Source of the DNA: Candidatus Latescibacterota bacterium
Lineage (GTDB): Bacteria; JAAXHH01
Assembly: GCA_022822725.1 (NCBI GenBank)
Contig: JAJEAN010000007.1
Location: 1,125,045-1,189,044 of the forward strand
Length of the DNA: 64,000 bases
Direction: 5' to 3'
Shown here in pieces: positions 51,187 through 64,000 of this stretch. The stretch's first letter is position 1; the number at the start of each line of letters is the position of its first letter. The translations under genes and the position numbers were made by a program. The notes under the pieces are model-generated. The model ran no database searches and was not told where the DNA came from. It saw only the letters and a program-made list of their open reading frames with translations.

Positions 51187-52302
51187 GTGAAGATAACCCG
51201 AATCGAAGCCATTCCCATCGAAGTGCCGCTCAAGCAGGGCATGACCACGAAAACGGCCCATGGCGAGCACATCGTCTCCCCCTATGTCATCCTCCGGGTT
51301 CACACGGACGAGGGGCTGACCGGACTGGGCGAGGCTACGGTCGCGCCGCGCTGGAGCGGAGAAACGTCCGCCTCCTGTACCGCTGCCGTCCGGGACCTGG
51401 TGGAACCCGCGCTGAAGGGCGAGGACCCGGCGGACGTGAACCGGCTCTGCGGCGTCATGGACGAAGTCATCAAGCTGAACCCCTTCACCAAGGCGGCCGT
51501 GGAGATGGCGCTGTGGGACCTGGCCGGGAAGAGCGCGGGCAGGCCCCTCTACCAGCTGCTGGGCGGAAAGGTCCGGCAGGAAATCCCTATGAAAATGGTG
51601 GTCGGCGCCTTCGACGTACCGACTTCCGTGGCCCTGGCGGAAAAGTTCCTGCAGTGGGGCGTTCAGTGTCTCAAGGTCAAAGTGGGGCTGGACCCCGAAG
51701 AGGACCTCGAACGCGTCCGGGCGGTCCGTGCGCTGGCCGGCCCCGACATACGAATGAGCATCGACGCGAATTGCGGGTGGCCGCCGGCGGTGGCGCGCCG
51801 CATGCTTCGCCTCCTCGAACCGCTGGACATCCTCTTCGCCGAACAGCCTTCCGCACCGCAGTTCGACGATGAAGCGGCCCTGATCCGCACGGGCACGACC
51901 ATCCCCATCATGGCGGACGAAAGCGTATTCACCCTTCACGACGCCATGCAGACCGCCCTTCGCCGGTCCGCCGATATCATCAGCGTCTATCCGGGCAAGA
52001 ACGGGGGCATCGGACAGACGCTGGGCATTTCGCACGTGGCGAGCGCGGCGGGGCTGCGTTGCCACATGGGCAGCAATCTCGAGCTGGGGATCGGCACGGC
52101 GGCCATGCTTCACGTAGCGGCCAGCGTGGAAGCCATCGACAGTGAGACCTATCCCGGCGACCTCCTCGGCCCGCTGTATCATGAAGGCGATATGATCGAG
52201 ACGCCGCTGGAACTCGGACCGGTCACCGCCAGGATCCCGGACGGCCCGGGACTCGGGGTCACCCTGGATGAAGCGCAGGTCGCACGCTGGAAGGACAGAT
52301 AA
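51187..52302 (+). CDS. Mandelate racemase/muconate lactonizing enzyme family (enolase superfamily)
   Basis: KVKVG, metal ligands D (SIDANCGW), E (FAEQP) and D (MADES). Confidence 0.85.
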   Translation: MKITRIEAIPIEVPLKQGMTTKTAHGEHIVSPYVILRVHTDEGLTGLGEATVAPRWSGETSASCTAAVRDLVEPALKGEDPADVNRLCGVMDEVIKLNPFTKAAVEMALWDLAGKSAGRPLYQLLGGKVRQEIPMKMVVGAFDVPTSVALAEKFLQWGVQCLKVKVGLDPEEDLERVRAVRALAGPDIRMSIDANCGWPPAVARRMLRLLEPLDILFAEQPSAPQFDDEAALIRTGTTIPIMADESVFTLHDAMQTALRRSADIISVYPGKNGGIGQTLGISHVASAAGLRCHMGSNLELGIGTAAMLHVAASVEAIDSETYPGDLLGPLYHEGDMIETPLELGPVTARIPDGPGLGVTLDEAQVARWKDR

Positions 52303-52329
52303 ACACACCGAACCACAGAAAGGACAACC

Positions 52330-53388
52330 ATGCCTGACGATCGGACATACAGAGCCTGCGTGGTGGGCTTGAGCGGCATCGGGGCGGGGCGGCCCAATGT
52401 CGAAGGCGACCACGGAATGGGCCACGTAATGCCCAACTGCCACGTACCCGCCTATGCCCAATTACCGTTCACGGAAGTCGTCGGCGTCTGCGACCTGAAG
52501 GACGATCTCGTGCAGGGCACCCTGAAGGACTGGTCGGTCACCTTTCCCGGTTTGCGGGGGTTTGCGGACTATAGGGAAATGCTCGAAACCTGCAAGCCCG
52601 ATATTCTGAGCGTGGTCACCTCGGACCATCGCCACGCCGACATCGTCGTGGACGCGGTCGAGGCCGGCGTCCGGGGTATATATTGCGAAAAACCCATCGC
52701 CACCTCACTGGCGGACGCCGACCGCATGATCGCCGCGGTGGAGCGCGGGAACGTGCCCATGACCATCAACCACACCCGCCGCTGGGGAACGGTATACAGG
52801 GAGGTCAAGAAACTGCTCGATGACGGTGTGATCGGCGAATTGAAACGCATCGTGCTGAACTTCGGCGGTCCCAGGGCCATTCTCTTTCGCAATGGCACCC
52901 ACATGATCGATATGACCTGTTTTCTGGCGGGATCGCGGCCCGCCTGGGTTTTCGCCGAACTCGACGAAGGCTACGAGGACTACTGGCCCTACCAGGGCGA
53001 CGGCGGCCGGAACGCGGACCTGGAACCGGGCTGCTCCGGCTTCATCCATTTCGAGAACGGCGTGCGGGCCTTCTATAACGGTTCCAAGGGACGGGAATGC
53101 CGCGGAGGATACCAGCTGGACGGCACCGACGGATGGATGTTCGTCCACGAGGACTATTACGAGATCGACAAGGGTGACGGGATCCAGACCATCGCGCCGA
53201 AGGGACCGACCCATTACTATTCTTCGGCCGCCGTCCGGGACCTCGTCCACGTCATGGAACACGGCGGGGAAACCGTCTCGCCGCCGCGCGCGGCGCGGGA
53301 CACCCTGGAGATCATCCTGGGCTTCCTCGCGTCGCAGAAGCACGGCAACGTACGCATCGATTTTCCGCTGGACGAAAACGCCGTATAA
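52330..53388 (+). CDS. Gfo/Idh/MocA family oxidoreductase
   Basis: CVVGLSGIG and CEKPIA. Confidence 0.8.
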   Translation: MPDDRTYRACVVGLSGIGAGRPNVEGDHGMGHVMPNCHVPAYAQLPFTEVVGVCDLKDDLVQGTLKDWSVTFPGLRGFADYREMLETCKPDILSVVTSDHRHADIVVDAVEAGVRGIYCEKPIATSLADADRMIAAVERGNVPMTINHTRRWGTVYREVKKLLDDGVIGELKRIVLNFGGPRAILFRNGTHMIDMTCFLAGSRPAWVFAELDEGYEDYWPYQGDGGRNADLEPGCSGFIHFENGVRAFYNGSKGRECRGGYQLDGTDGWMFVHEDYYEIDKGDGIQTIAPKGPTHYYSSAAVRDLVHVMEHGGETVSPPRAARDTLEIILGFLASQKHGNVRIDFPLDENAV

Positions 53389-53411
53389 ATTGCCATGAGT
53401 GATCACCGGCC

Positions 53412-55454
53412 ATGAGCGTTCGCATCGCCATAGACACGGGCGGCACGTTTACCGATCTCGTCCTGTCCGATCCCGGGACGGGCCGCCTGGTGTTCCACAA
53501 GGTGCCGAGCACGCCGGCCGATCCGAGCCGGGCGCTGGTGGACGGGGTCAAGGACCTCGTCAACCGGGCCGGCGTCGCGCATGAGGATATCCTGTTCCTC
53601 ATACACGGCACCACGGTGGCTACCAATACCATCCTGCAGCGGCAGGGCGCCCACACGGCCTTCATTACCACCGAGGGCTTCCGGGACGTGCTCCATATAC
53701 AGCGGCAGGACCGGCCCCACCTGTACAACATGCGTGTTCGCCGGCCCCCCGCCCTCGTGCCCCGGTCCCTGCGGTATGAACTGCCGGAGCGCATCCTGTA
53801 CGACGGATCGGAAGCGCTTCCCGTAAACACGAATCGACTGGAAGAACTGGTGGAATCGCTCAGGGCGGAAGGGATAGAAGCGGTCGGCATCGGGTTGCTG
53901 CACAGCCATATCAATCCCGAACACGAGCGGTCCGTCGGCGCAGTGCTGCGGCGGGCGCTGCCGGACGCCACCGTCTGCCTCTCATCCGATCTGAGCCGGG
54001 AAGAAGGCGAATACGAGCGGTTCAGCACCTGTGCCATGAACGCCTACGTGCAGCCGGTGATGACGAACTACCTGAAACGGGTGAACGATGCGCTGTCCGA
54101 GGCTTCAGTCGCCGCGCCGCTATACGTAATGAAGTCAAACGGCGGAGTCACTTCGGCCGAGCACGCCGCCGATCATTGCGTGCATACGTTCCTGTCGGGC
54201 CCGGCCGGCGGTGTGGTGGCCGGCGCGGAGATCGGCCGGCGGCTCGATCGCCCCAACCTCATTACGGCCGACATGGGCGGGACCAGCTTCGACGTGGCCA
54301 TGATCCATAAACGGAATATCGCCTTCGCGAAGAACGCGGAAATAGACGGACTGGCCCTGAAGGCGCCGATGATGGATATACACACGATCGGTGCGGGAGG
54401 CGGAAGCATCGCGTGGATCGATTCCGGCGGTGCCCTGCGGGTGGGACCGCGATCCGCGGGGGCCAGGCCGGGCCCCGCCTGCTACCCGAAAGGTGGCGAC
54501 GAACCCACGGTGACGGACGCGAACCTGGTGCTGGGCCGGCTCTCGACAGACAGCCTGCTGGGCGGCGCGATTACCCTCGATCCGTCCTCCGCCCGGCGTG
54601 TGATCGAGCACAAGATAGCCTCCAGGCTGAACTGTACCGTGGAGGAAGCCGCCGAAGGCATCATCCGGGTGATCAACGCCTCCATGACGGCGGCCATCCG
54701 CAAGCTCACCGTGGAACGGGGATACGATCCGCGCCGGTTCACGCTGGTGCCCTTCGGCGGCGCGGGACCGCTTCACGGCGTCGAACTCGCCCGGGAACTG
54801 GACGTAAGCGACATAGTAGTTCCCCTTGCGCCCGGCGTCGCCTCGGCCGAGGGCCTGGTTTTCTCGAATTTGCGATCGGACAGGATCCAGACGCACGTGG
54901 AATTGCTGGCAAGGCTCGAGGAAACTGAATTCGAGAAGATGCTGGAAGACCTGGCCGTGCAGGCGGCGGGGGACTTGACTTCCTCGGCGGAGGCAAGCGA
55001 TCCGGTAATCAGCAGGCGTGTAGGCCTCAGATACGCGGGACAGGGCTACGACATTCCGATCGATCTGCCTGGTGGTCCCGTTGACCTTCCTGCCCTCGAA
55101 TCGGCCTTTCATGTCGAACACGAGCGGCAGTACGGCTTCGCGCGCCGGGATCAGCGGGTCCAACTGGTCAACATATGGGTTTCCGCGGAATTGCCGATCT
55201 CGGACGACCTGCGCAGACCCTCGGAACGGGCCGAATCAAAGCAGCCCGCACCGCGTTCCACCCGCCCCGTCTACCTGTCCGGCAACTGGCACGAAACGGC
55301 TGTCTACGAACGGTCCCGGTTGCGTCCGGGCCAGCGGATCGAAGGACCGGCCATCATAGAGCAGCTTGATTCGACGACGTTGATCTGGCCCGGTGGGCAC
55401 GCCTGTATAGATGCCTGGGATCAGATCGCCGTCGCGGGTGTGGAGACGCCATGA
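53412..55454 (+). CDS. hyuA: Hydantoinase/oxoprolinase family, A subunit (ATP-dependent cyclic amide hydrolase)
   Basis: IAIDTGGTFTD N-terminus, DMGGTSFD; 680 aa. Confidence 0.85.
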   Translation: MSVRIAIDTGGTFTDLVLSDPGTGRLVFHKVPSTPADPSRALVDGVKDLVNRAGVAHEDILFLIHGTTVATNTILQRQGAHTAFITTEGFRDVLHIQRQDRPHLYNMRVRRPPALVPRSLRYELPERILYDGSEALPVNTNRLEELVESLRAEGIEAVGIGLLHSHINPEHERSVGAVLRRALPDATVCLSSDLSREEGEYERFSTCAMNAYVQPVMTNYLKRVNDALSEASVAAPLYVMKSNGGVTSAEHAADHCVHTFLSGPAGGVVAGAEIGRRLDRPNLITADMGGTSFDVAMIHKRNIAFAKNAEIDGLALKAPMMDIHTIGAGGGSIAWIDSGGALRVGPRSAGARPGPACYPKGGDEPTVTDANLVLGRLSTDSLLGGAITLDPSSARRVIEHKIASRLNCTVEEAAEGIIRVINASMTAAIRKLTVERGYDPRRFTLVPFGGAGPLHGVELARELDVSDIVVPLAPGVASAEGLVFSNLRSDRIQTHVELLARLEETEFEKMLEDLAVQAAGDLTSSAEASDPVISRRVGLRYAGQGYDIPIDLPGGPVDLPALESAFHVEHERQYGFARRDQRVQLVNIWVSAELPISDDLRRPSERAESKQPAPRSTRPVYLSGNWHETAVYERSRLRPGQRIEGPAIIEQLDSTTLIWPGGHACIDAWDQIAVAGVETP

Positions 55455-57142
55455 AGACCGACCCCATTACGCTGGAGCTGATGCGCAACCGGTGGACGGG
55501 CATCGCGGAAGAAATGTGCGCCGCCCTGATCCGCACCAGTTACTCCACCAACATCAAGGACCGCCGGGACTGCTCCGCGGCCATCGTGCAGCCCACGGGG
55601 GAGATCCTGGCCCAGGCCGAATCGGGCGTGCCGCTCCATCTCGGCGTGATGCCCGGGGTAGTCCGGTCCATCCTGGAAGCCTACCCCGTGTCGGTCATGC
55701 GGCCAGGCGACGTCTATATCACGAACCTGCCGTATCCGGAAGGACCGGGGCATCTGCCGGACGTTTCCCTGGTCTCCGCCATATTTCACGAAGGGCGACC
55801 CATCGCGCTCGCGGCATCCACCGCCCACCACGTGGACATGGGCGGGTTCGCACCCGGCAGCATGCCTTTCGGAGTGACGGAAATCTACCAGGAGGGGCTG
55901 CAGATCCCTCCGCTTCCCATCTTCAAAGAGGGACGGCTCGACGAAGAGATCTATAAACTGATCAACCAGAACGTGCGGACGCAGTACGAAGTGCGCGGGG
56001 ACTTGATGGCCCAGTTCGCCTGCGCCCAGATCGGCCAGCAGCGGGTGAGTGAGCTCATGTCCCGGGAGTCTCCGGCTGAAGTCATTCGCTACATGGACGA
56101 GATCCAGGACTATGCGGAACGCAGGATGCGCGCGGGGATAGGGACCCTTCCGGACGGCGCGTATACCTTCGAGGATTACCTGGACGACGACGGGGTCACC
56201 GATGAGCCGGTTAAAATCATGGTCACCCTGACTGTCTCGGGCGACGCGTTGCGCGCGGATTTCTCAGGGAGCAGCGACCAGGTCCTGGGTCCGCTGAACG
56301 CACGTCTGCCGGCGGCCCATTCCTGCATCAGCTACGTCTGCAAGGCGGTGATCGATCCCGATCTGCCTGCCTGCGCCGGGGCGTACAGGCCCCTGGATAT
56401 CTTCGCCCCGGAGGGTTCCATCCTACAGGCTACCTACCCCGCGGCCATCGGCAATGCCAATATCCTGACGGACCAGCGCGTCGTGGACGTGCTGATGGGC
56501 GCACTGTACCAGGCTGCGCCCGGCCGGGTGTGCGCGGCCTGCAGCGGCGAGATGAACCTGGTCAATATCGGCGGGATCGATCCCGCTTCCGGGGATTACT
56601 ACAACTACGTGGAAACCTATGCAGGCGGCCAGGGCGCCATGTACGACCTCGACGGCGAAGACGGCGTGCATACCCACCTCACCAACACGCGGAACGCGCC
56701 GGTCGAAGTCATGGAGCGCACTTACCCGCTGAGGGTCGAGCGGTACGGCCTGATCCCCGACACCGACGGACCAGGACGCCGGCGCGGCGGTTGCGGCATG
56801 ATGCGGGAACTGAAGTGCCTGGGAGAACGCACCATCATCACGCTGGGATCCGACCGGCGGAAATTCACGCCGTGGGGCCTCGAAGGCGGCGGCAACGCGA
56901 CGGGCGCCCACTGTTACGTCATCGACACCGAAGGACGCGAGAAGGAAATACCTACCAAGGCCCACACCGAACTGTACAAAAACGACGTCCTGAGGATCGA
57001 GACGCCCGGCGGCGGCGGCTGGGGAGACCCGGCGGAGCGGGACCGCACCATGGTGCAGGAGGACGTCCGGAACGGGCTCGTAAGCGAGAAAAGGGCGAAC
57101 GAACAGTACGGTTGCAGGCAGGACCGGAAACCGGAAAACTGA
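55451..57142 (+). CDS. hyuB: Hydantoinase/oxoprolinase family, B subunit
   Basis: 4 nt ATGA overlap with hyuA; Hydantoinase_B fold; 563 aa. Confidence 0.85.
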   Translation: MKTDPITLELMRNRWTGIAEEMCAALIRTSYSTNIKDRRDCSAAIVQPTGEILAQAESGVPLHLGVMPGVVRSILEAYPVSVMRPGDVYITNLPYPEGPGHLPDVSLVSAIFHEGRPIALAASTAHHVDMGGFAPGSMPFGVTEIYQEGLQIPPLPIFKEGRLDEEIYKLINQNVRTQYEVRGDLMAQFACAQIGQQRVSELMSRESPAEVIRYMDEIQDYAERRMRAGIGTLPDGAYTFEDYLDDDGVTDEPVKIMVTLTVSGDALRADFSGSSDQVLGPLNARLPAAHSCISYVCKAVIDPDLPACAGAYRPLDIFAPEGSILQATYPAAIGNANILTDQRVVDVLMGALYQAAPGRVCAACSGEMNLVNIGGIDPASGDYYNYVETYAGGQGAMYDLDGEDGVHTHLTNTRNAPVEVMERTYPLRVERYGLIPDTDGPGRRRGGCGMMRELKCLGERTIITLGSDRRKFTPWGLEGGGNATGAHCYVIDTEGREKEIPTKAHTELYKNDVLRIETPGGGGWGDPAERDRTMVQEDVRNGLVSEKRANEQYGCRQDRKPEN

Positions 57143-57238: not shown

Positions 57239-58000
57239 TCAGTAGAGGCCCGGTACCAGGGCCCTGCGATTTGCCGGATAATCGCTGAACGTTTCCCGGT
57301 ACCATCGGTGGTTGCTCCGTGCCCGCGGGGCGAGATTGGCGATGGCGAACAGCATGAATGCAAGGCCGCACGACGACCAGGTGGCGACCGCCCAGCCTGC
57401 CCATTCGAGGATTTCCCCCAGGTAGTTCGGACACGAGACGAAGCGGAACCCGCCGCCCCGCGGTATCGCATAGCCCGTCTCACCGGGCCGGCGCAGGCGC
57501 ATGAGCGTGTTGTCGGCGTGGAGGTTGAGCGCGAACCCGGCGAGGAATATCCCGACCCCGATCAGGAAGCGGGGGTCGGCGATCCATTCAGTGGCGTACT
57601 CGCCGAATTCCGAAACGAAGCGGGCGTTGATGTACGCGTTGACCGCATTGAACAGAAAGCCGGAGCCGACCACCACAAGGGGCGTCTTCCGGCCGCTTGC
57701 CCGGACACGAAACGGATAGACGAAGGTCCGGTTCAGATAGTGGCCCTGCCACATGGCCAGGAACAGCAGCGGCACGAACTGGAACGCGCCCTTGCCATTG
57801 AGATAGACGACGAGGAAGACCGCGGGTGCCGGCAACTCCATGATGATCCACGCGAGCCTGGCGGAAACGTGTGGCCCCCAGCCCGCACCCGCGTAGTGGC
57901 GTCCGTAGGGCGCGGTCCTGCGTAGCAGGTACAGGAACGTCACGGGCGCCGACGCAATGATCGCCCATATCAGTATCCCGTGCAGACGTTCTTCGGTCAT
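57239..58000 (-). CDS. Steroid 5-alpha-reductase/DUF1295 family membrane NADPH reductase
   Basis: 253 aa, about 6 TM, C-terminal FRFVSCPNYLGEILEWAGWA typical of 3-oxo-5-alpha-steroid 4-dehydrogenase C-terminal domain. Its start abuts the upstream stop (58000/58001). Confidence 0.7.
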   Translation of the reverse strand: MTEERLHGILIWAIIASAPVTFLYLLRRTAPYGRHYAGAGWGPHVSARLAWIIMELPAPAVFLVVYLNGKGAFQFVPLLFLAMWQGHYLNRTFVYPFRVRASGRKTPLVVVGSGFLFNAVNAYINARFVSEFGEYATEWIADPRFLIGVGIFLAGFALNLHADNTLMRLRRPGETGYAIPRGGGFRFVSCPNYLGEILEWAGWAVATWSSCGLAFMLFAIANLAPRARSNHRWYRETFSDYPANRRALVPGLY

Positions 58001-59029
58001 TCACGCCTCTTCACTCAGCATGCCGTGTTCGTCGAACCAGCGGTACGTGTCCTCTATCGATTCCGCGAGCGAGCGCGGGTTGAACCCGAGTTCCGCCCGC
58101 GCCTTGGTGCTGGATATCCGCCGATTGGCATGGGCCATGACGCGGACGGATGCTGGCGTGTAGAGCGGAGGACGTCCACGAAACCGATCCAGGACGACCT
58201 GGAAGGGTGCCCATACCCGGGCGGCGAAAATGGGGAACTGGAGGCGGGGTGCGGCTACTCCGGTCGCCTGCTCGCAAAGCTCCGCCAGTTCTTGCACGGT
58301 GTGCCAGTTTCCTGACAGCAGGTAGTTCTCTCCACATCTCCCCTGAGTCTCTGCGGCTATCGCGGCCGACGAGACATCGCGCACGTCAACCCAGTCGTAA
58401 CCACCTGCGATCAGCGCGGGAAGCCGCCTGCGGCGGAGGTCGAGAAACAGCTGCCCCATCGGCGACGGAGCGCCGTCATAGGGGCCGATCACGCTGGTCG
58501 GATTCAGGATCACGGCATCGAGGCCGCGGTCGATGCCGCAACGGACTTCCGCTTCGCCGGCGGCTTTCGAACGGTCGTAAGGCGCGGCGCGGCGGCTGTC
58601 GGCCGGACGGCGGCTTTCATCGAGCACTTCGTCCAGCGGGTGCTGGTCGAACGCGTGGATGGAGGAAACGTGAACCAGGCGCCGTACACCGCATGCAAGG
58701 GCCGCTTCCACGACATTGCGGGTGCCCAGGACATTCGTGCGATGGAAATCCCGGGCCCTTACGGTGCCGATCGAGACCAGCGCGGCCAGATGGAACACGG
58801 TTTCCGCGCCCGTGAAGGCCGCGATCAGCGATTCCTTGTCGAGCAGGTCGCCATTGACCCATGTAATGCCGAGATCCGCCACGGTCCCTCGACGCTTCCG
58901 GAAGGTCGCACGGACCCGGCGGGGCCCGTACTTGTCGGCAAGAGCCCGTGCCAATACCCCGCCGATCTGCCCGCTCGCACCCGTAATCACCCGTACGCTG
59001 TGAGGCCGTCCGTCGTCAGATGATCTCAT
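58001..59029 (-). CDS. Extended-SDR, 3beta-hydroxysteroid-dehydrogenase/NAD-epimerase family
   Basis: ATG at 59029; ITGASGQIGG; NVLGTRNVVEAA (3beta-HSD-like); YDRSK catalytic dyad. Confidence 0.7.
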   Translation of the reverse strand: MRSSDDGRPHSVRVITGASGQIGGVLARALADKYGPRRVRATFRKRRGTVADLGITWVNGDLLDKESLIAAFTGAETVFHLAALVSIGTVRARDFHRTNVLGTRNVVEAALACGVRRLVHVSSIHAFDQHPLDEVLDESRRPADSRRAAPYDRSKAAGEAEVRCGIDRGLDAVILNPTSVIGPYDGAPSPMGQLFLDLRRRRLPALIAGGYDWVDVRDVSSAAIAAETQGRCGENYLLSGNWHTVQELAELCEQATGVAAPRLQFPIFAARVWAPFQVVLDRFRGRPPLYTPASVRVMAHANRRISSTKARAELGFNPRSLAESIEDTYRWFDEHGMLSEEA

Positions 59030-59094
59030 TGCGAATGACTCGATCCGCGAATCGTAGACCGGACCAGGCGCTGGAGAAGCAGGCTCATGCGAAC

Positions 59095-61122
59095 TCAGGT
59101 TCGCAATTCGTGCCGCTGCTCGGCGATCCTGAACTTTAGTTTGTTGCTGGGCGACTGCGAGGGGAAGGGGTCCATCGGCAACCGCTTGTAGGGGCGGGCC
59201 AGTTCGAGCTTGTAGTAATGCGTGAGCATCAGCAGGTTGATCGCCATGTGCATGTTGGCCCATCGGTGCCCGAGACAGGAGTGCGTGCCCAGTCCGAAAG
59301 GCGCGTAGCCTTTGCCAAGGTGCTCGTTTCGCGGGGGCACGTAGCGGTCGATGTCGAAGGTCTGTGGATCGGGAAACGCCTCTTCCAGGTAGTGCGTGGC
59401 CGTCTGTGCAATCACGAGTTGCGTCCCGACCGGTAATTCGAAACCCACCACCACGCAGGTATTCATCACCGTGCGCATGGCCATGGGCGCGATCGGACTC
59501 ATCCGCAGCGTCTCCATCAGCACCCGGTGGGTCACGTCGATCCGGTCCGGCTTGAAGTCGTCCTCGCCGGGATCGCCATCAGCCCACAGCGCGTCCGCTT
59601 CGGCCGTGACCCGCTCGTACAGATCAGGATTCTGCAGCAGCCAGTAAAGGGCGAAGCCAACCTGGTCGCCCAGGTACATGGCGGTCATCAGGATCGCCCC
59701 CAGCGGCAGCGACAGGTCCGATTCGGGAAGGAACTGGGGATCCGTCGCGTGCAGGGCCAGATACGCGTCCACCACGTCCTTATGCATCCCGACCCTTTGC
59801 GCGGCCGTATGTGTACTTTGCATACGTTCCATGATCCGTTTCATGGTTTTAGCCCGACGGCGCATCGACGGGGTTTTGAGCATGAAACGCGGCAGCATCT
59901 TCATGATGCCTACATTGAGCACCCGTGCCTTGTATTTAAGCGCGTCGACGATCTCGGCCTGCGTGTCAATGCTGGCGAAGAGCGGCGAAGACTGCGCGTT
60001 CAGCAATGGCCGCAGCATCACCTGCGACGGCATCGTGCTGCCGACGTCCCAACCCGCCATGTGCGCGCGGGTCAGGTCATAGACCTCGTCCAGGCGGTCG
60101 GTCAAGGTCTTGCGAGAGTATGCGGGCTGGAGCGACTTGCGAAAACGAAAGTGATCGGCCCCGTCAACCGAATGCATCGAGCGCGACACGCCGTACGCCC
60201 TGTCCACCTCCTCGAAGTACTCCTTGGACCGCAGGAACACGCGCCCCATGCGTTGGGCCCATTCATTCGTCTTCACCCCCGCCAGGAAGATGATGTTCTT
60301 GCGGAACGGGATCCGTAGCTCGAACACCGGACCATACTTTTCAGCCAAAATGGCGAACGCTGACGGCAGCCTGCCCGCTATCAGCTCGCGGTTGAATACC
60401 AGGTCACGCAGGGCCACGGCTGGAATCGGCTTGGTCAACGAGGGCTGGCGAAGCGAGGGCGCGACGATGCTCTGGCCCACCGCCGCCGCAATCGCCCGCC
60501 CGATCAGTTCCATCTTGCAGATAAATTCAACCCGCTCTTCCGCCTCCTCATCCAGTTGGAAAATGAAGCGCATGACATCGCAGGTATTTAACAGGCAAAT
60601 AACGATGATGTCTCTGGGCTCGGGAATCTCGTTCAGGAAGATCGCCTTGCTGATGCGCGTCTTGATGAATTGGCCCGCGCTACCTTCCTGGGAGTCGCTG
60701 GACTGGTCCGTGTGCCAGACAGAAGGAGCCAGTGTCCAGAAGTCGCCCTCGTGGTGTTCCAGGATCTTCTGGTCAACCATGCGATCAAGCACGGAATCTA
60801 TGATAGACTCCGCACGGGGAGCGAGTTTTTCTATCCAGTACTGCGTGTTGTGTTTAACGGATTCGCTTGCGATTTCTTCCAGTATGTCGTCCAGGGTGGT
60901 GTTTCCCGTTTCCCTCCGGTCCACCAGGAACAGGGACTCCATGTCCGTATCGATGCGAGATCTCAGCGAAAGTTCCCCGAGCACCGCGCCGACCACGGCG
61001 CAGTTCAGATTCCAGCCGGGCACCTGATGGAAGTACCCCGTCTCCTCGTTGAGGAGCATCAGGATGAATTCCTGGGTCAGCGTTAATGGTTGGGTCTTCA
61101 CTGCTTCTGTAGGAGTAGCCAT
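59095..61122 (-). CDS. Fusion protein: N-terminal GPP34/GOLPH3-like domain plus C-terminal cytochrome P450
   Basis: ATG at 61122 with GGAG upstream. Residues ~10-230: PLTLTQEFILMLLNEETGYFHQVPGWNLNCAVVGAVLGELSLRSRI aligns with the GOLPH3 motif [44 protein letters not shown]. The C-terminus carries ETLR, FDIDRY and heme-loop FGLGTHSCLG. The I-helix reads LGDQVG (no conserved Thr). Confidence 0.7.
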   Translation of the reverse strand: MATPTEAVKTQPLTLTQEFILMLLNEETGYFHQVPGWNLNCAVVGAVLGELSLRSRIDTDMESLFLVDRRETGNTTLDDILEEIASESVKHNTQYWIEKLAPRAESIIDSVLDRMVDQKILEHHEGDFWTLAPSVWHTDQSSDSQEGSAGQFIKTRISKAIFLNEIPEPRDIIVICLLNTCDVMRFIFQLDEEAEERVEFICKMELIGRAIAAAVGQSIVAPSLRQPSLTKPIPAVALRDLVFNRELIAGRLPSAFAILAEKYGPVFELRIPFRKNIIFLAGVKTNEWAQRMGRVFLRSKEYFEEVDRAYGVSRSMHSVDGADHFRFRKSLQPAYSRKTLTDRLDEVYDLTRAHMAGWDVGSTMPSQVMLRPLLNAQSSPLFASIDTQAEIVDALKYKARVLNVGIMKMLPRFMLKTPSMRRRAKTMKRIMERMQSTHTAAQRVGMHKDVVDAYLALHATDPQFLPESDLSLPLGAILMTAMYLGDQVGFALYWLLQNPDLYERVTAEADALWADGDPGEDDFKPDRIDVTHRVLMETLRMSPIAPMAMRTVMNTCVVVGFELPVGTQLVIAQTATHYLEEAFPDPQTFDIDRYVPPRNEHLGKGYAPFGLGTHSCLGHRWANMHMAINLLMLTHYYKLELARPYKRLPMDPFPSQSPSNKLKFRIAEQRHELRT

Positions 61123-61467
61123 CAGCCTCAGTCTCCCTGCATGATATCCAAACCATCGGCCAATCGCCCTTGTTGCACTTGTAGTTAAGGTAATACTCGG
61201 GCCTGGGGGCAGCAAGTCATATTTTGGTCAGGTTCAGGCTCGGGACAGTGTCGGGGAATGGCCCGCCACAGGTCGATCGGCGACCGAATCGCTAAACCCT
61301 GTGCGAGCATCCTCTACCAGGGAAGCTTCCCGCCCGCCCGGCCGGCGTTTCAGGAATGTGCGCGATGGCGCGCGTCTGAAATCCGCTTGGGAAACGGCAA
61401 CGGCTTCAGGCCGATGTTGCTTCACGCATATTCTATCTCGGTCCACCGTCGCCGTGTGCAATTTTAC

Positions 61468-61499
61468 TTGCAAAAAGGCCCATCGCCCGGGCATATAAT
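61468..61499 (+). promoter_or_regulatory. Candidate promoter for the Rieske oxygenase gene
   Basis: TTGCAA at 61468-61473 and a perfect TATAAT at 61494-61499. The spacer is 20 nt (suboptimal). It sits in an AT-rich patch of a 428 bp divergent intergenic region. Confidence 0.3.
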
Positions 61500-61550
61500 T
61501 ACAGGATCCTTCACTGCACCTGCAGACGGCCACGGCGCCCTTACGGATGT

Positions 61551-62639
61551 ATGCCTATGAACAGGAACACTACCGATCGGATCGCCGAACCTGTCGCAGG
61601 CAAAGCTGCCAGCCGTCCAGCCACCGACATGCCGGATCGACTGCCTCCCTTCCCGGAAGGCTGGTACCTGGTTACATCCCGCAAGACCCTGCTGCGCGAG
61701 AAGCTGATCGAGAAGAAGTGGATGGGTGAGGATATCGTCGCCTGGTGTGACGAGCAGGGCCGTACCTGCGTAGCCGACGCCGTCTGTCCGCACATGGGCT
61801 CGCACCTGGGCCCGGCCGTTGGCGGGCGGATTTGCAACGGCCGCCTCGTCTGCCCGTTCCACGGATTCGAATTCGACGCGACCGGCAAGTGCGTAGCGAC
61901 GCCGAACGCGCCGGCCCCGAAAGCCGCCAGACTAAGCATATACGAGACCCGGGAGATCTTCGGCCTGGTCTTCGCCTGGTACGGAATCGGCGGAAGGCCG
62001 CCGCAATGGCACCTGCCTGGCGAACCGCCCACCGACACGGAATGGGGCGAACTGGGATTTCTGAACCTCAGGTTCCGCAGCCATCCCCAGGAAACCGCGG
62101 AGAACTCGGTGGACTTAGGGCACCTGCGGTACGTGCACGGGTACGACAATGTTAATCCGGTCGGATCGGTTGAGGTGGAAGGCGCGTACCTGAGAAGTGG
62201 TTTCGAATTCAAGCGCGTCCGCAGGATCCTGGGACTGACCGACATGGTCTACGAAGTCTCCGCGGTCGCGCATCTTTACGGACTGGGCTACTCTTTTGTC
62301 GAAATCCACGAGAAAACTATCGATATGCACGCGAGATTCTGGGTCCTTACTACCGCTGTCGACGGCACCCACATAGATCTCGTATTGGCAAGCCAGTTGC
62401 AGGAAATCCGAAAGCCCCGGCGGTTCATTTCGGGCCTGGGTTTCCTGCCATCGAAGCTGCGCCAGAGACTGATGAACCGGATTCTGCTTGCACAGCAGAA
62501 AAGGGATGTGCTGCAGGACGTGGTGATCTGGGAAAGGAAGCGGTTCAGGACGCCTCCCCGGCTGTGCAAGTCCGACGGCCCAGTCGGACTGTTTCGCCGC
62601 TATTGCCGGCAATTCTATCCTGAATCATCCATGGACTGA
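61551..62639 (+). CDS. Rieske [2Fe-2S] non-heme-iron mono-oxygenase alpha subunit (KshA/SdmA/Neverland-like, single-component type)
   Basis: Rieske CPHMGSHL..CPFHG; mononuclear iron motif D-x2-H-x4-H (DLGHLRYVH); 362 aa. Confidence 0.8.
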   Translation: MPMNRNTTDRIAEPVAGKAASRPATDMPDRLPPFPEGWYLVTSRKTLLREKLIEKKWMGEDIVAWCDEQGRTCVADAVCPHMGSHLGPAVGGRICNGRLVCPFHGFEFDATGKCVATPNAPAPKAARLSIYETREIFGLVFAWYGIGGRPPQWHLPGEPPTDTEWGELGFLNLRFRSHPQETAENSVDLGHLRYVHGYDNVNPVGSVEVEGAYLRSGFEFKRVRRILGLTDMVYEVSAVAHLYGLGYSFVEIHEKTIDMHARFWVLTTAVDGTHIDLVLASQLQEIRKPRRFISGLGFLPSKLRQRLMNRILLAQQKRDVLQDVVIWERKRFRTPPRLCKSDGPVGLFRRYCRQFYPESSMD

Positions 62640-62655
62640 CTGGTGCGGGGACCAG
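62640..62655 (+). terminator. Short GC hairpin directly after the Rieske stop
   Basis: ctggt-gcgggg-accag; no U-tract. Confidence 0.2.
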
Positions 62656-62738
62656 ATACACAGCAGCTGAACGCGAAAGCTGCGGGTCAATGGCGTCGAG
62701 AACGTGCAAAGCGCTGCCTGCACCTGCGGACCGAGGGC

Positions 62739-63614
62739 CTAACCACCTTCCTCCAGCTCCGCCAGGGCTTCCAGAACGTCCTGCAGGATGAACTCGTCGT
62801 AGGCATCCCGTACCGGTAGTCCGGCCGCCTTCGACAGCAACGCCCCGGCCCGCTCACGGCCGCCCTCGCGGTCGAGTTCAGGAAGATTGAGCGCATACTC
62901 CAACAGTATGACCCTCGAGTCCGGTGCGAGTTCCAGCGCCCGCTCGAAGTGGCTGATGGCGTCCTCGCGATTTCCTTTGTACAAGAACCGGGCGATACGT
63001 CCGGCACTGGCGATGCCGGCGTGCCAGCTACCCAGGGCCATGTGCGTCTGGGCGAAGTCGGGACTGATGGCGAGCGCGTCTTCGAGCAGACCCCGGATCT
63101 TGCCCGCCAGGCCCCGGCGAAGTGCCGTGATCTTTCCGACGCTCTGGGCATATCGTCCAACGGCGTGCGCGGACCGGTAATACGCTTCGGCATTGGCCGA
63201 ATCGGCACGCACCGCCTCCTCTCCCAGTTTCATCGCGCGTTCCAGGAACTCCTTCCGGTCATCCCCGACCGCCACGTGGTGACCGTACACCGCGAGCGAT
63301 TGCGCTGCCAGGGCGTAGCCTTCGGAGGTGCCCAGGGCTTCCGCGAGATCCGCCGCTTCGAGAAAGCGGCCTTCCTCGAATGCGGTCCGCGCTTCGTCAA
63401 CCTCGAGAAAGCGGCCTTCCTCGAATGCGGTCCGCGCTTCGTCAATCGACTGGGCGTTCGCGTCGGCAGCGCCGAAGAGGCTGGCCGCGCCGACCAGGCT
63501 GGCCGCACCCGTCCCGCCGACCAGGCCGGCTGCGCTGGCCAGGCTGAGCAGGCCAGCCGCCAGGAGCACGAATCTGCCGGTCGCCGCGAATAGAACATAT
63601 CGGATTTGGGTCAT
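62739..63614 (-). CDS. Secreted tetratricopeptide-repeat protein
   Basis: Signal peptide followed by an Ala-rich linker and TPR-like helices. It contains a 15 aa perfect duplication. Confidence 0.6.
   Translation of the reverse strand: MTQIRYVLFAATGRFVLLAAGLLSLASAAGLVGGTGAASLVGAASLFGAADANAQSIDEARTAFEEGRFLEVDEARTAFEEGRFLEAADLAEALGTSEGYALAAQSLAVYGHHVAVGDDRKEFLERAMKLGEEAVRADSANAEAYYRSAHAVGRYAQSVGKITALRRGLAGKIRGLLEDALAISPDFAQTHMALGSWHAGIASAGRIARFLYKGNREDAISHFERALELAPDSRVILLEYALNLPELDREGGRERAGALLSKAAGLPVRDAYDEFILQDVLEALAELEEGG
63358..63447. repeat. 45 bp x2 perfect tandem duplication inside the TPR gene
   Basis: tcgagaaagcggccttcctcgaatgcggtccgcgcttcgtcaa(c/t)c x2, encoding DEARTAFEEGRFLE(V/A) twice. 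Confidence 0.9.
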
Positions 63615-63781
63615 CTGATCATCCGGTTCGATTCAGGTGATGGGCATTTCGCGTGATGACTCTGCGATGCGGGTTCTCAGCTGTAAATGTATGTGATGAA
63701 AGGGAGTTACGCAAGTCTATTCGTTGCGGAGAGGTCGATCCGAGAGATGGTTTACGAACGTATCATACGAGGCTTTGGCCT

Positions 63782-64000
63782 TCATCCATGCGCCGGAACC
63801 TGTTCCTGTGCGGCCGCAAGACCCTTGGATCCGCCGCGCAAGGCGATCAACCGCTGATGTATGGAGGACAGGGCGGGGACGACCACCATCAGGATGGCCG
63901 TAGTGAAGAGAATACCGCACCCGAGGGACGCGGCGAAGGGGATCAGGAACTGGGCCTGTATGGCGGGTTCCAGGATGAGGGGCATGAAGCCGAGGAACGT
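63782..64000 (-). CDS. C-terminal fragment of an RND/MMPL-superfamily-like transporter (the gene continues beyond the window)
   Basis: ..[51 protein letters not shown].., a hydrophobic terminal TM pair typical of RND C-termini. Confidence 0.35.

Follow-up and report, generated by a model that had tools for sequence, protein, structure and literature searches.

The window analysed here is a stretch of 64,000 nucleotides from a Candidatus Latescibacterota genome (contig JAJEAN010000007.1), whose last part (positions 57,239 to 64,000) carries a compact group of genes where a fusion of a GPP34 domain with a cytochrome P450, a short-chain dehydrogenase/reductase (SDR), a membrane reductase of the SRD5A family and a Rieske oxygenase are found next to a protein with tetratricopeptide repeats (TPR) and the end of a resistance-nodulation-division (RND) transporter. 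An exact-sequence match placed the window in a scaffold of 796 kb from the metagenome of an Ircinia sponge (data set of Kelly et al. 2022), and the closest genomes were Latescibacterota metagenome-assembled genomes (MAGs) from Ircinia radix and I. bocatorensis, with a 96% identical P450; the window is DNA of a Latescibacterota symbiont of Ircinia sponges. Comparison of these genes with their relatives leads us to consider it probable, although well short of certain, that the locus is a horizontally mobile cassette of sponge symbionts for the tailoring and export of sterols.

Three of the genes form an operon on the minus strand. It starts with the GPP34-P450 fusion (59095-61122, 675 aa), the architecture known as GPP34_L, in which the GPP34 (GOLPH3-like) domain takes residues ~15-215 (60478-61080) and the P450 domain residues ~254-655 (59158-60363), and continues, after a spacer of 65 nt (59030-59094), with an extended SDR of the HpnA/SdmB, 3β-HSD-like group (58001-59029, 342 aa; Pfam Epimerase and 3Beta_HSD), to end with the SRD5A/Steroid_dh membrane reductase (57239-58000, 253 aa). 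The stop codon of the SDR abuts the start codon of the reductase (a 0-nt junction at 58000/58001), and both this junction and the 65-nt gap, which had been described in a previous sequence-only reading of the locus, agree with gene calls made independently for that contig (those of L001/L053 for the spacer; L numbers designate here the loci compared). Longer open reading frames (ORFs) for the SDR (to 59263) and the P450 (to 61215) were dropped in favour of the called starts because homologs support the latter. A divergent intergenic region of 428 bp (61123-61550), where neither a sigma-70 consensus site nor an Rfam match was found, separates this operon from the gene of a single-component Rieske non-heme-iron oxygenase with a KshA_C domain, on the plus strand (61551-62639, 360-362 aa, called start at 61557). 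Back on the minus strand, a TPR/RMD1-3-like protein with a signal-peptide-like hydrophobic N-terminus (62739-63614, 291 aa; Pfam TPR, PF21033) is followed at the edge of the window by the 3' end of the RND permease gene (63782-64000). On the scaffold the complete order is an outer-membrane factor (509 aa), a membrane fusion protein (MFP, 412 aa), the RND permease (1074 aa) and the TPR gene, then the Rieske gene on the opposite strand, and then GPP34-P450, SDR and SRD5A. All the genes of the sequence-only reading were found where it had placed them, as ORFs, Pfam matches and gene calls; the TPR gene, between the Rieske and RND genes, had not been mentioned in it. The catalytic motifs of the four enzymes, as read from their sequences, are intact.

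The fusion protein carries its two domains in a single polypeptide (PF05719, 100.4 bits for a cut-off of 29.1; PF00067, 111.8 bits for a cut-off of 22.8), and the same architecture was found in more than 120 protein clusters with identities of 66-95%. Like its own scaffold, the nearest MAGs come from Ircinia, in line with the sponge association of GPP34_L. The heme loop FGLGTHSCLG (FGLGTHxCxG) is present, and its C616 as well as E537 and R540 of the EXXR motif are invariant. The best match of the family profile in the PDB was the CYP51 of Methylococcus capsulatus (6mi0, 105 bits, E 2e-29), over the whole domain, and CYP51s were followed in this ranking by CYP102-like enzymes, taxadiene hydroxylase, CYP3A and steroidogenic P450s; CYP125 and CYP142 were not among the top matches. 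The sequence-only reading had thought of a C-14 demethylase, which is a role of CYP51, and this candidate was ruled out by three observations: a weak score (75.5 bits for the single sequence and 105 for the profile, versus 348 for the genuine CYP51 of an Opitutales MAG, L008), an identity of just 24.6% over 240 aa with that L008 enzyme, and a changed I-helix, where the AG(Q/H)HTS motif of CYP51 (FAGQHTS in L008) is replaced by an aligned M-Y-L/M-G-D-Q with invariant Y483 and D486 (Y483-x-G-D486). Moreover, the genuine CYP51 coexists with a GPP34-P450 in L008, and a P450 66% identical to it does so in L056. The window P450 is, on these comparisons, a divergent relative of CYP51 and not its ortholog. 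An AlphaFold2 model of the fusion, built with the 66-95% identical homologs as input, gave confident values for the GPP34 domain (pLDDT 85-93) and low ones for the P450 part (<50), and because of the latter the Foldseek ranking of the model (CYP51, BM3 and others, with root-mean-square deviations of 12-14 Å) was given no weight. As a separate observation, four loci (L016, L031, L041 and L050) carry two paralogous GPP34-P450 genes each, which in L031, L041 and L050 are near one another on the same strand, and these pairs sit among genes for a sterol C-24 methyltransferase (SMT), ERG4/24, a FAD-oxidase and MMPL transporters with a sterol-sensing domain (MMPL-SSD).

The GPP34 domain deserves its own comparison with GOLPH3, whose pocket for phosphatidylinositol 4-phosphate (PI4P) was reportedly defined in 2009, by Wood and colleagues and by Dippold and colleagues, as W81, R90, R171 and R174. 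In a profile alignment (9qpq/3kn1), which is weak (24 bits) and anchored by G91/G45 and the WIE motif, the three arginines correspond to V44, E105 and I108, positions that are never basic in 34 family members, while the position of W81 is ambiguous (P35 or W37). The lack of three out of the four PI4P-binding residues argues against a canonical binding of this lipid, and no signal peptide was read at the N-terminus of the fusion. The missing residues, together with the existence of GPP34-Rieske and GPP34-ABC ATPase fusions, would suit a general role of GPP34 as a module by which enzymes active on membrane lipids are docked to a membrane or a lipid.

The second enzyme, the SDR, shows the motifs TGASGQIGG (GxxGxxG), NVLGTRNV and YDRSK (YxxxK), the last two already recognised as 3β-HSD-type in the sequence-only reading, and its best PDB match was 3wj7 (E 3.7e-43). 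The proposal of an SdmB-like partner did not hold, as the protein scored 203 bits with the SdmB model of NCBIfam (cut-off 600), and its 217.5 bits with HpnA were also below the cut-off (367.65). The SDR thus falls, as far as such scores can place it, within the HpnA/SdmB group as a member of neither named family. For the reductase, the SRD5A assignment was confirmed by PF02544 (171 bits against a cut-off of 22.6, E 1.8e-50) and by a full-length match (residues 12-251) to PbSRD5A (7c83; 278 bits, E 6.7e-82), with lower scores for human SRD5A2 (154 bits, E 3.3e-44) and for a TECR-type enzyme (47 bits). PbSRD5A is an active steroid 5α-reductase that reduces progesterone and is inhibited by dutasteride (PMC7815742). 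The window protein keeps the catalytic Glu (in MELP) and Tyr (in HYLNRT) and all eight NADPH-binding residues (N, D, R, N, E, R, H and Y). The Gln of the QEY motif (Q56 in human SRD5A2, where this residue is essential) is a Met both here and in 114 of the 120 closest clusters, and the resulting Met-Glu-Tyr may indicate a different substrate or a variant mechanism.

The Rieske protein matched PF00355 (58.7 bits) and the KshA_C domain PF19298 (80.7 bits, cut-off 23.3), and its motifs CPHMGSHL...CPFHGFEF and the iron-site DLGHLRYVH are intact and invariant among family members. Its best sequence matches in the PDB were KshA enzymes (E 3e-21), with identities of 21-24%. The KshA/SdmA type of architecture previously noticed is therefore retained with regard to the KshA_C domain and the intact iron site, and lost with regard to SdmA: the model NF052579 gave 34.6 bits, over the Rieske half only, for a cut-off of 600, so that SdmA was ruled out, whereas the SdmA-like gene of L008 reached 408.8 bits at full length. 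The AlphaFold2 model was poor over the Rieske domain, and the top Foldseek match, again KshA (TM ~0.45), agrees only weakly with what the sequence searches gave. When every small ORF of 59 loci was scanned for the motifs of redox partners, spurious matches alone were recovered, with no ferredoxin or reductase ORF, and we infer that the electron donors of the P450 and the Rieske enzyme are encoded elsewhere.

The partial RND protein at the window edge turned out to be the last 72 residues of the 1074-aa permease (NCBIfam RND_permease_2, 409 bits) of a complete tripartite pump, composed of outer-membrane efflux protein (OEP), MFP and RND permease, whose MFP and OEP genes lie outside the window. 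The same type of pump adjoins the cassette, differently arranged, in L007 and L055. Homologs of the TPR protein (43-46% identity) are next to GPP34-P450 in loci of Thermodesulfobacteriota and Dadabacteria, and this protein is a candidate periplasmic lipid carrier or adaptor. It was also tried as a homolog of BstC, with non-significant results in a PDB sequence search, BLASTP and hhalign (E 0.089). The TPR gene itself contains a perfect in-frame tandem duplication of 45 bp (63358-63445) that repeats 15 aa (DEARTAFEEGRFLE-V/A), present in the L003 homolog and absent in those of L002 and of the Thermodesulfobacteriota and Dadabacteria; the adjoining signal-peptide-like region (63465-63564) is itself a GC-rich 14/18-bp repeat that varies in length among close relatives.

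The arrangement of these genes in other genomes was addressed through a scan of one genome per species, which gave 51 loci with the fusion (49-96% identity); counts of neighbours cover 57 related loci from about ten phyla, where all ORFs were clustered and representatives checked by Pfam and NCBIfam. The carriers are MAGs labelled as Latescibacterota, Dehalococcoidia/Chloroflexota, Acidimicrobiia (Ca. Poriferisodalis), Poribacteria, Dadabacteria, Thermodesulfobacteriota, Binatia, Bryobacterales, Opitutales and Alphaproteobacteria. Transporters of the HAE3/MMPL type with sterol-sensing/Patched domains, distantly HpnN-like by NCBIfam, occur in 30 (23 + 7) of the loci and KshA_C-type Rieske oxygenases in 26, followed by SMTs with a Sterol_MT_C domain (15), the window-type SDR (11), ERG4/ERG24 reductases (9), SRD5A (7) and squalene epoxidase/oxidosqualene cyclase (7). 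Leaving out the FAD amine-oxidase-like protein (15 loci), the TPR protein (10) and the AcrB-type RND (9), at least one sterol-linked neighbour was found in 49 of the 57, and no genes of β-oxidation or ring cleavage were recurrent among the conserved neighbours of these loci. The order P450-SDR-SRD5A, with spacings of 64-67 nt and then 0-1 nt, recurs in L003, L005, L007 and L056/L057, and the P450-SDR pair in L002, L004, L008 and L055; because the same order and spacing are repeated across MAGs of several phyla (Latescibacterota, Acidobacteriota, Verrucomicrobiota and others), the arrangement cannot be put down to chance. The outcomes that the sequence-only reading had named as contrary to a sterol locus were not observed: the cassette genes recur together in related genomes, and among solved structures the Rieske protein is nearest to KshA and the P450 nearest to CYP51s.

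The link with sterols is most direct in those lineages where GPP34-P450-SDR(-SRD5A) abuts a complete cluster for sterol biosynthesis, of which two were found. In L008, with a P450 86% and an SDR 84% identical to those of the window, an SdmB-like SDR, SMT, ERG2, a squalene epoxidase-oxidosqualene cyclase (SE-OSC; TIGR03463, 724 bits), CYP51 (348 bits to M. capsulatus 6mcw), ERG24 and an SdmA-like Rieske protein (409 bits) are all divergent from the GPP34-P450-SDR genes. In L056/L057, whose 4.7-Mb contig carries the label circular, GPP34-P450, SDR and SRD5A (83% identical) keep a window-like spacing, and ~2 kb beyond them there are SMT, SE-OSC, the P450 that shares 66% identity with the CYP51 of L008, and ERG24. 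A third locus, L029, combines MMPL-SSD, GPP34-P450, OSC and SE, and rearranged sets of Rieske, GPP34-P450, SDR and RND pump genes appear in L055 and L007, in the latter with SRD5A. From the arrangements in these five cases we conclude that the cassette is modular, moves between phyla and has been wired repeatedly into sterol gene sets. The sequence-only reading had left undecided whether the locus serves sterol tailoring, steroid degradation or something unrelated, and the first is favoured because homologous cassettes adjoin SMT, ERG4/24, MMPL-SSD, OSC, CYP51 and SdmA genes, and conserved catabolic genes are absent.

Some further features of these loci can be added. The squalene epoxidase and the oxidosqualene cyclase are fused in a protein of ~1147 aa in L008 (2593-6039) and L056 (11635-15078), and encoded by separate genes in L029. 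Resolvase (serine recombinase) genes lie directly upstream of GPP34-P450 in L054 (6061-6558), L056 (2733-3695) and L057 (2772-3692), which would fit a cassette that moves as a mobile unit. No sign of recent transfer was seen in base composition, as the GC content at third codon positions of the cassette (0.73-0.82) is like that of flanking genes, and no fused homolog was present among 72,556 plasmids, where the sole match was a 27% identical Planktothrix P450. The 462-aa FAD amine-oxidase-like neighbour (for example L022, 8362-9750), of which only the N-terminal Rossmann part matches PPO/HpnE models, is a possible sterol desaturase. Beside the window cassette, beyond SRD5A, there are unrelated genes for enolase-superfamily (MR/MLE), GFO/IDH/MocA oxidoreductase and hydantoinase A/B proteins (51187-57142), and L003 keeps the hydantoinase genes, but ~2.7 kb farther away from SRD5A.

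Whether the symbiont tailors its own or foreign sterols was approached through the genes missing from the locus. As previously noted for cyclase and squalene epoxidase, the scan of the 64-kb window revealed no cyclase and no squalene epoxidase, nor CYP51, ERG24, SMT or any other sterol gene beyond the cassette. The closest Latescibacterota MAGs, assembled in 7-55 contigs at a completeness of 97.8%, are listed with 'CSG present: No' (CSG, cluster of steroid genes) in Table S1 of Kelly et al. 2022, where the Opitutales MAG of L008 is flagged 'Yes'. A cyclase is therefore likely to be absent in the lineage of the window, and since its nearest near-complete MAGs are devoid of the ERG24-CYP51-cyclase cluster, the cassette would probably act on exogenous sterols, either from the host or from neighbouring symbionts. 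If the cyclase is indeed absent, such a tailoring of foreign sterols would agree well with a neighbouring pump that spans the envelope and a TPR protein whose N-terminus resembles a signal peptide.

A route can be proposed for the cassette, although any particular order of its reactions seems to us much less probable than the general role in sterol tailoring. The SDR would oxidise the 3β-hydroxyl of a sterol and shift the Δ5 double bond to Δ4, giving a 3-oxo-Δ4 sterol, whose Δ4 bond would be reduced by SRD5A with NADPH to a 5α-3-ketone, with a possible re-reduction to the 5α-stanol; these two steps follow the established enzymology of 3β-HSD/SdmB-type SDRs and of SRD5A/DET2. The P450, as a putative neofunctionalised relative of CYP51, would oxidise another carbon of the sterol, held at the membrane or fed with substrate by its GPP34 domain instead of a transmembrane anchor, and the Rieske enzyme would hydroxylate or desaturate the ring system. 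As their families suggest, each oxygenase may add one oxidation, be it a hydroxylation, a demethylation or a desaturation, and the GPP34-Rieske fusions are a domain-fusion link between the two partners. Finally, the RND pump and the TPR protein would move either the substrate or the product across the envelope.

Three other explanations have to be weighed. Among them, the one we would place first, and still hold to be unlikely, is a steroid catabolism or detoxification in which the 3β-HSD, a 9α-hydroxylase similar to KshA and a P450 acting on the side chain start a degradation of host sterols for carbon, of the 9,10-seco type. KshA enzymes are the closest solved relatives of the Rieske protein, an efflux pump would fit detoxification, and steroid degraders are on record from sponge metagenomes, but KstD, KshB, Hsa, FadD, FadE and thiolase are all missing among the conserved neighbours of the 57 loci, where the partners are of biosynthetic or tailoring type (SMT, ERG4/24, ERG2, OSC, CYP51 and SdmA), and the P450 is related to CYP51, with CYP125/CYP142 absent from its top PDB matches. 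An SRD5A-type reductase is not known to take part in this catabolic pathway. Even less probable, in our opinion, is a tailoring of isoprenoids other than sterols (hopanoids, other triterpenoids or polyprenols) by an HpnA-like SDR and an SRD5A3/TECR-like reductase. It could explain that HpnA is the top NCBIfam model for the SDR (217.5 bits), the distant HpnN-like character of the conserved MMPL transporters and the altered QEY motif, in a superfamily that also reduces polyprenols and enoyl-CoAs (a match to PDB 22of); nearby cyclases, however, are of the oxidosqualene type (TIGR03463, 724 bits, against 272 for the hopene cyclase), Sterol_MT_C methyltransferases, ERG2, ERG24 and CYP51 are among the neighbours, the reductase is far nearer to PbSRD5A and SRD5A2 (278 and 154 bits) than to the TECR type (47 bits), and none of the loci contained hpn genes.

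The last explanation, to which we give the lowest probability, comes from Ferreira et al. 2025, who found GPP34_L in sponge symbionts only and suggested a PI4P and phagocytosis role: the fusion would be a factor for host manipulation whose GPP34 domain binds host PI4P and disturbs the maturation of phagosomes, with the P450 and the neighbours as accessory or unrelated elements. The Pfam match of the GPP34 domain is solid and the domain folds confidently in AlphaFold2. Yet R90, R171 and R174 have become V, E and I, conserved as such in the family, the N-terminus lacks a signal peptide, the fusion partner is an intact and strongly conserved P450, and enzymes of membrane lipids or sterols and transporters are neighbours in 49 of the 57 loci; moreover, the published study looked at the genes that flank the short form alone, and sterols are nowhere mentioned in it. 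Roles as host effector and in sterol tailoring are not strictly exclusive.

The sterol-tailoring cassette, which we continue to prefer, has in turn several points against it. The assignment of a sterol as substrate rests on homology and gene neighbourhood, and all four proteins score below the curated cut-offs set for characterised families of sterol enzymes; judged by these scores, none is an ortholog of CYP51, SdmA, SdmB or HpnA. The HpnA model scores slightly above SdmB for the SDR, the SRD5A clade has a Met in place of the Gln that is essential in human SRD5A2, and no ferredoxin or reductase partner is encoded near the cassette. The fusion occurs without any sterol-linked neighbour in eight loci, and the SDR and SRD5A join it in closer relatives only. 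The CSG flag of Kelly et al. 2022, in addition, covers just the clustered ERG24-CYP51-LSS trio, which limits the claim of an absent cyclase. A Dehalococcoidia clade of ~59-60% identity (L012, L013, L015, L018, L042 and L045) carries the fusion alone, in variable and unrelated contexts where no neighbour is conserved.

The pieces of this picture were already published separately, namely the GPP34-P450 fusions in 2025, the steroid clusters of Ircinia symbionts in 2022 and the functional symbiont SMTs in 2023. In the literature searched we found no account of a link among the three, of a GPP34-P450-SDR-SRD5A operon with Rieske and pump partners, or of evidence against PI4P binding by GPP34_L, and a search on GPP34, sponge and sterol together returned nothing relevant. 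If our interpretation is right, GPP34-P450, so far a possible factor for phagocytosis evasion, becomes the core enzyme of a sterol-modifying module, and four uncharacterised enzyme families join bacterial sterol chemistry: a P450 derived from CYP51 whose I-helix has Tyr and Asp, a Rieske oxygenase similar to KshA, a third SDR of the HpnA/SdmB type and a Met-Glu-Tyr SRD5A. Moreover, there would be sterol remodelling without synthesis: the presence of the cassette in lineages devoid of a cyclase cluster implies that symbionts may import and alter sterols that are not of their own making, and this uptake and remodelling could serve as a currency of the symbiosis. A tentative extension, which taken as a whole we consider doubtful, is that the cassette rebuilds sterols of the host or the community (into 5α-stanols, nuclei with ring unsaturation or hydroxylation, or nor-sterol nuclei) alongside the C-24 methyltransferases of symbionts, so that part of the 'sponge' sterol and sterane signature would be bacterial, and that GPP34 is a prokaryotic module that docks oxygenases to membranes or sterols instead of a PI4P effector. 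The origin of unusual sterols and sterane biomarkers, in sponges or in their symbionts, is actively debated, and these results concern those who work on sponge symbiosis, bacterial sterols and sterane biomarkers.

The comparison with known systems delimits what is shared and what is particular to this locus. The GPP34_L proteins described by Ferreira et al. 2025 (Microbiome 13:4, PMC11706023) as GPP34 plus P450, from sponge symbionts only and across many phyla, include the window protein, which has the same N-terminal GPP34, the same C-terminal P450 and the same setting in a sponge symbiont. Those authors proposed that GPP34 binds host PI4P and blocks phagosome maturation, as a way to evade phagocytosis, and reported rare GPP34-Rieske and GPP34-ABC ATPase fusions; flanks were examined for the short form, and the word 'sterol' is absent from their text, whereas in our case sterol genes make up the flanks, and PI4P-binding residues are not retained at three of the four positions. 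The closest structural reference for the P450 is the CYP51 family of M. capsulatus (6mi0/6mcw), the best-matching one among solved P450s, with the heme-thiolate and EXXR motifs in common, but the window enzyme differs in its score (75-105 bits versus 348 for the L008 CYP51), in its Y-x-G-D I-helix and in its fusion to GPP34. As for KshA and SdmA, the Rieske protein shares the KshA_C-type domain and the intact metal sites, and the SDR belongs in the SdmB/HpnA group, although the identity to KshA stays at 21-24%, no KshB-type reductase is near and SdmA gives only 34.6 bits. With the BstABC system of Methylococcus and with HpnN, the locus shares a layout in which an RND-superfamily transporter and a helical protein of TPR-like type, whose N-terminus resembles a signal peptide, stand beside sterol enzymes; other cassette loci carry HAE3/MMPL transporters with sterol-sensing domains, while the pump of the window is tripartite and AcrB-type, with MFP and OEP, and not HpnN/BstA-like.

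Closer to the biology of the locus are the clusters of steroid genes (ERG24-CYP51-LSS) reported by Kelly et al. 2022 in Ircinia symbionts, and the bacterial sterol clusters with SMT of Brown et al. 2023. They share with our cassette the same sponge microbiomes and the same transfer across phyla, and are joined to it in L008 and L056/L057, but the window cassette is devoid of cyclase, CYP51, ERG24 and SMT, and its four enzymes are other families or paralogs. Finally, with the steroid 5α-reductases (PbSRD5A, 7c83; human SRD5A2, 7bw1; plant DET2) the homology extends over the full length of seven transmembrane segments, with catalytic and NADPH-binding residues kept. The window clade departs from them in the Met that replaces the QEY Gln and in a gene translationally coupled to an HpnA/SdmB-like SDR, a pairing with a 3β-HSD-type enzyme that parallels the route from Δ5-3β-ol through 3-oxo-Δ4 to 5α products.

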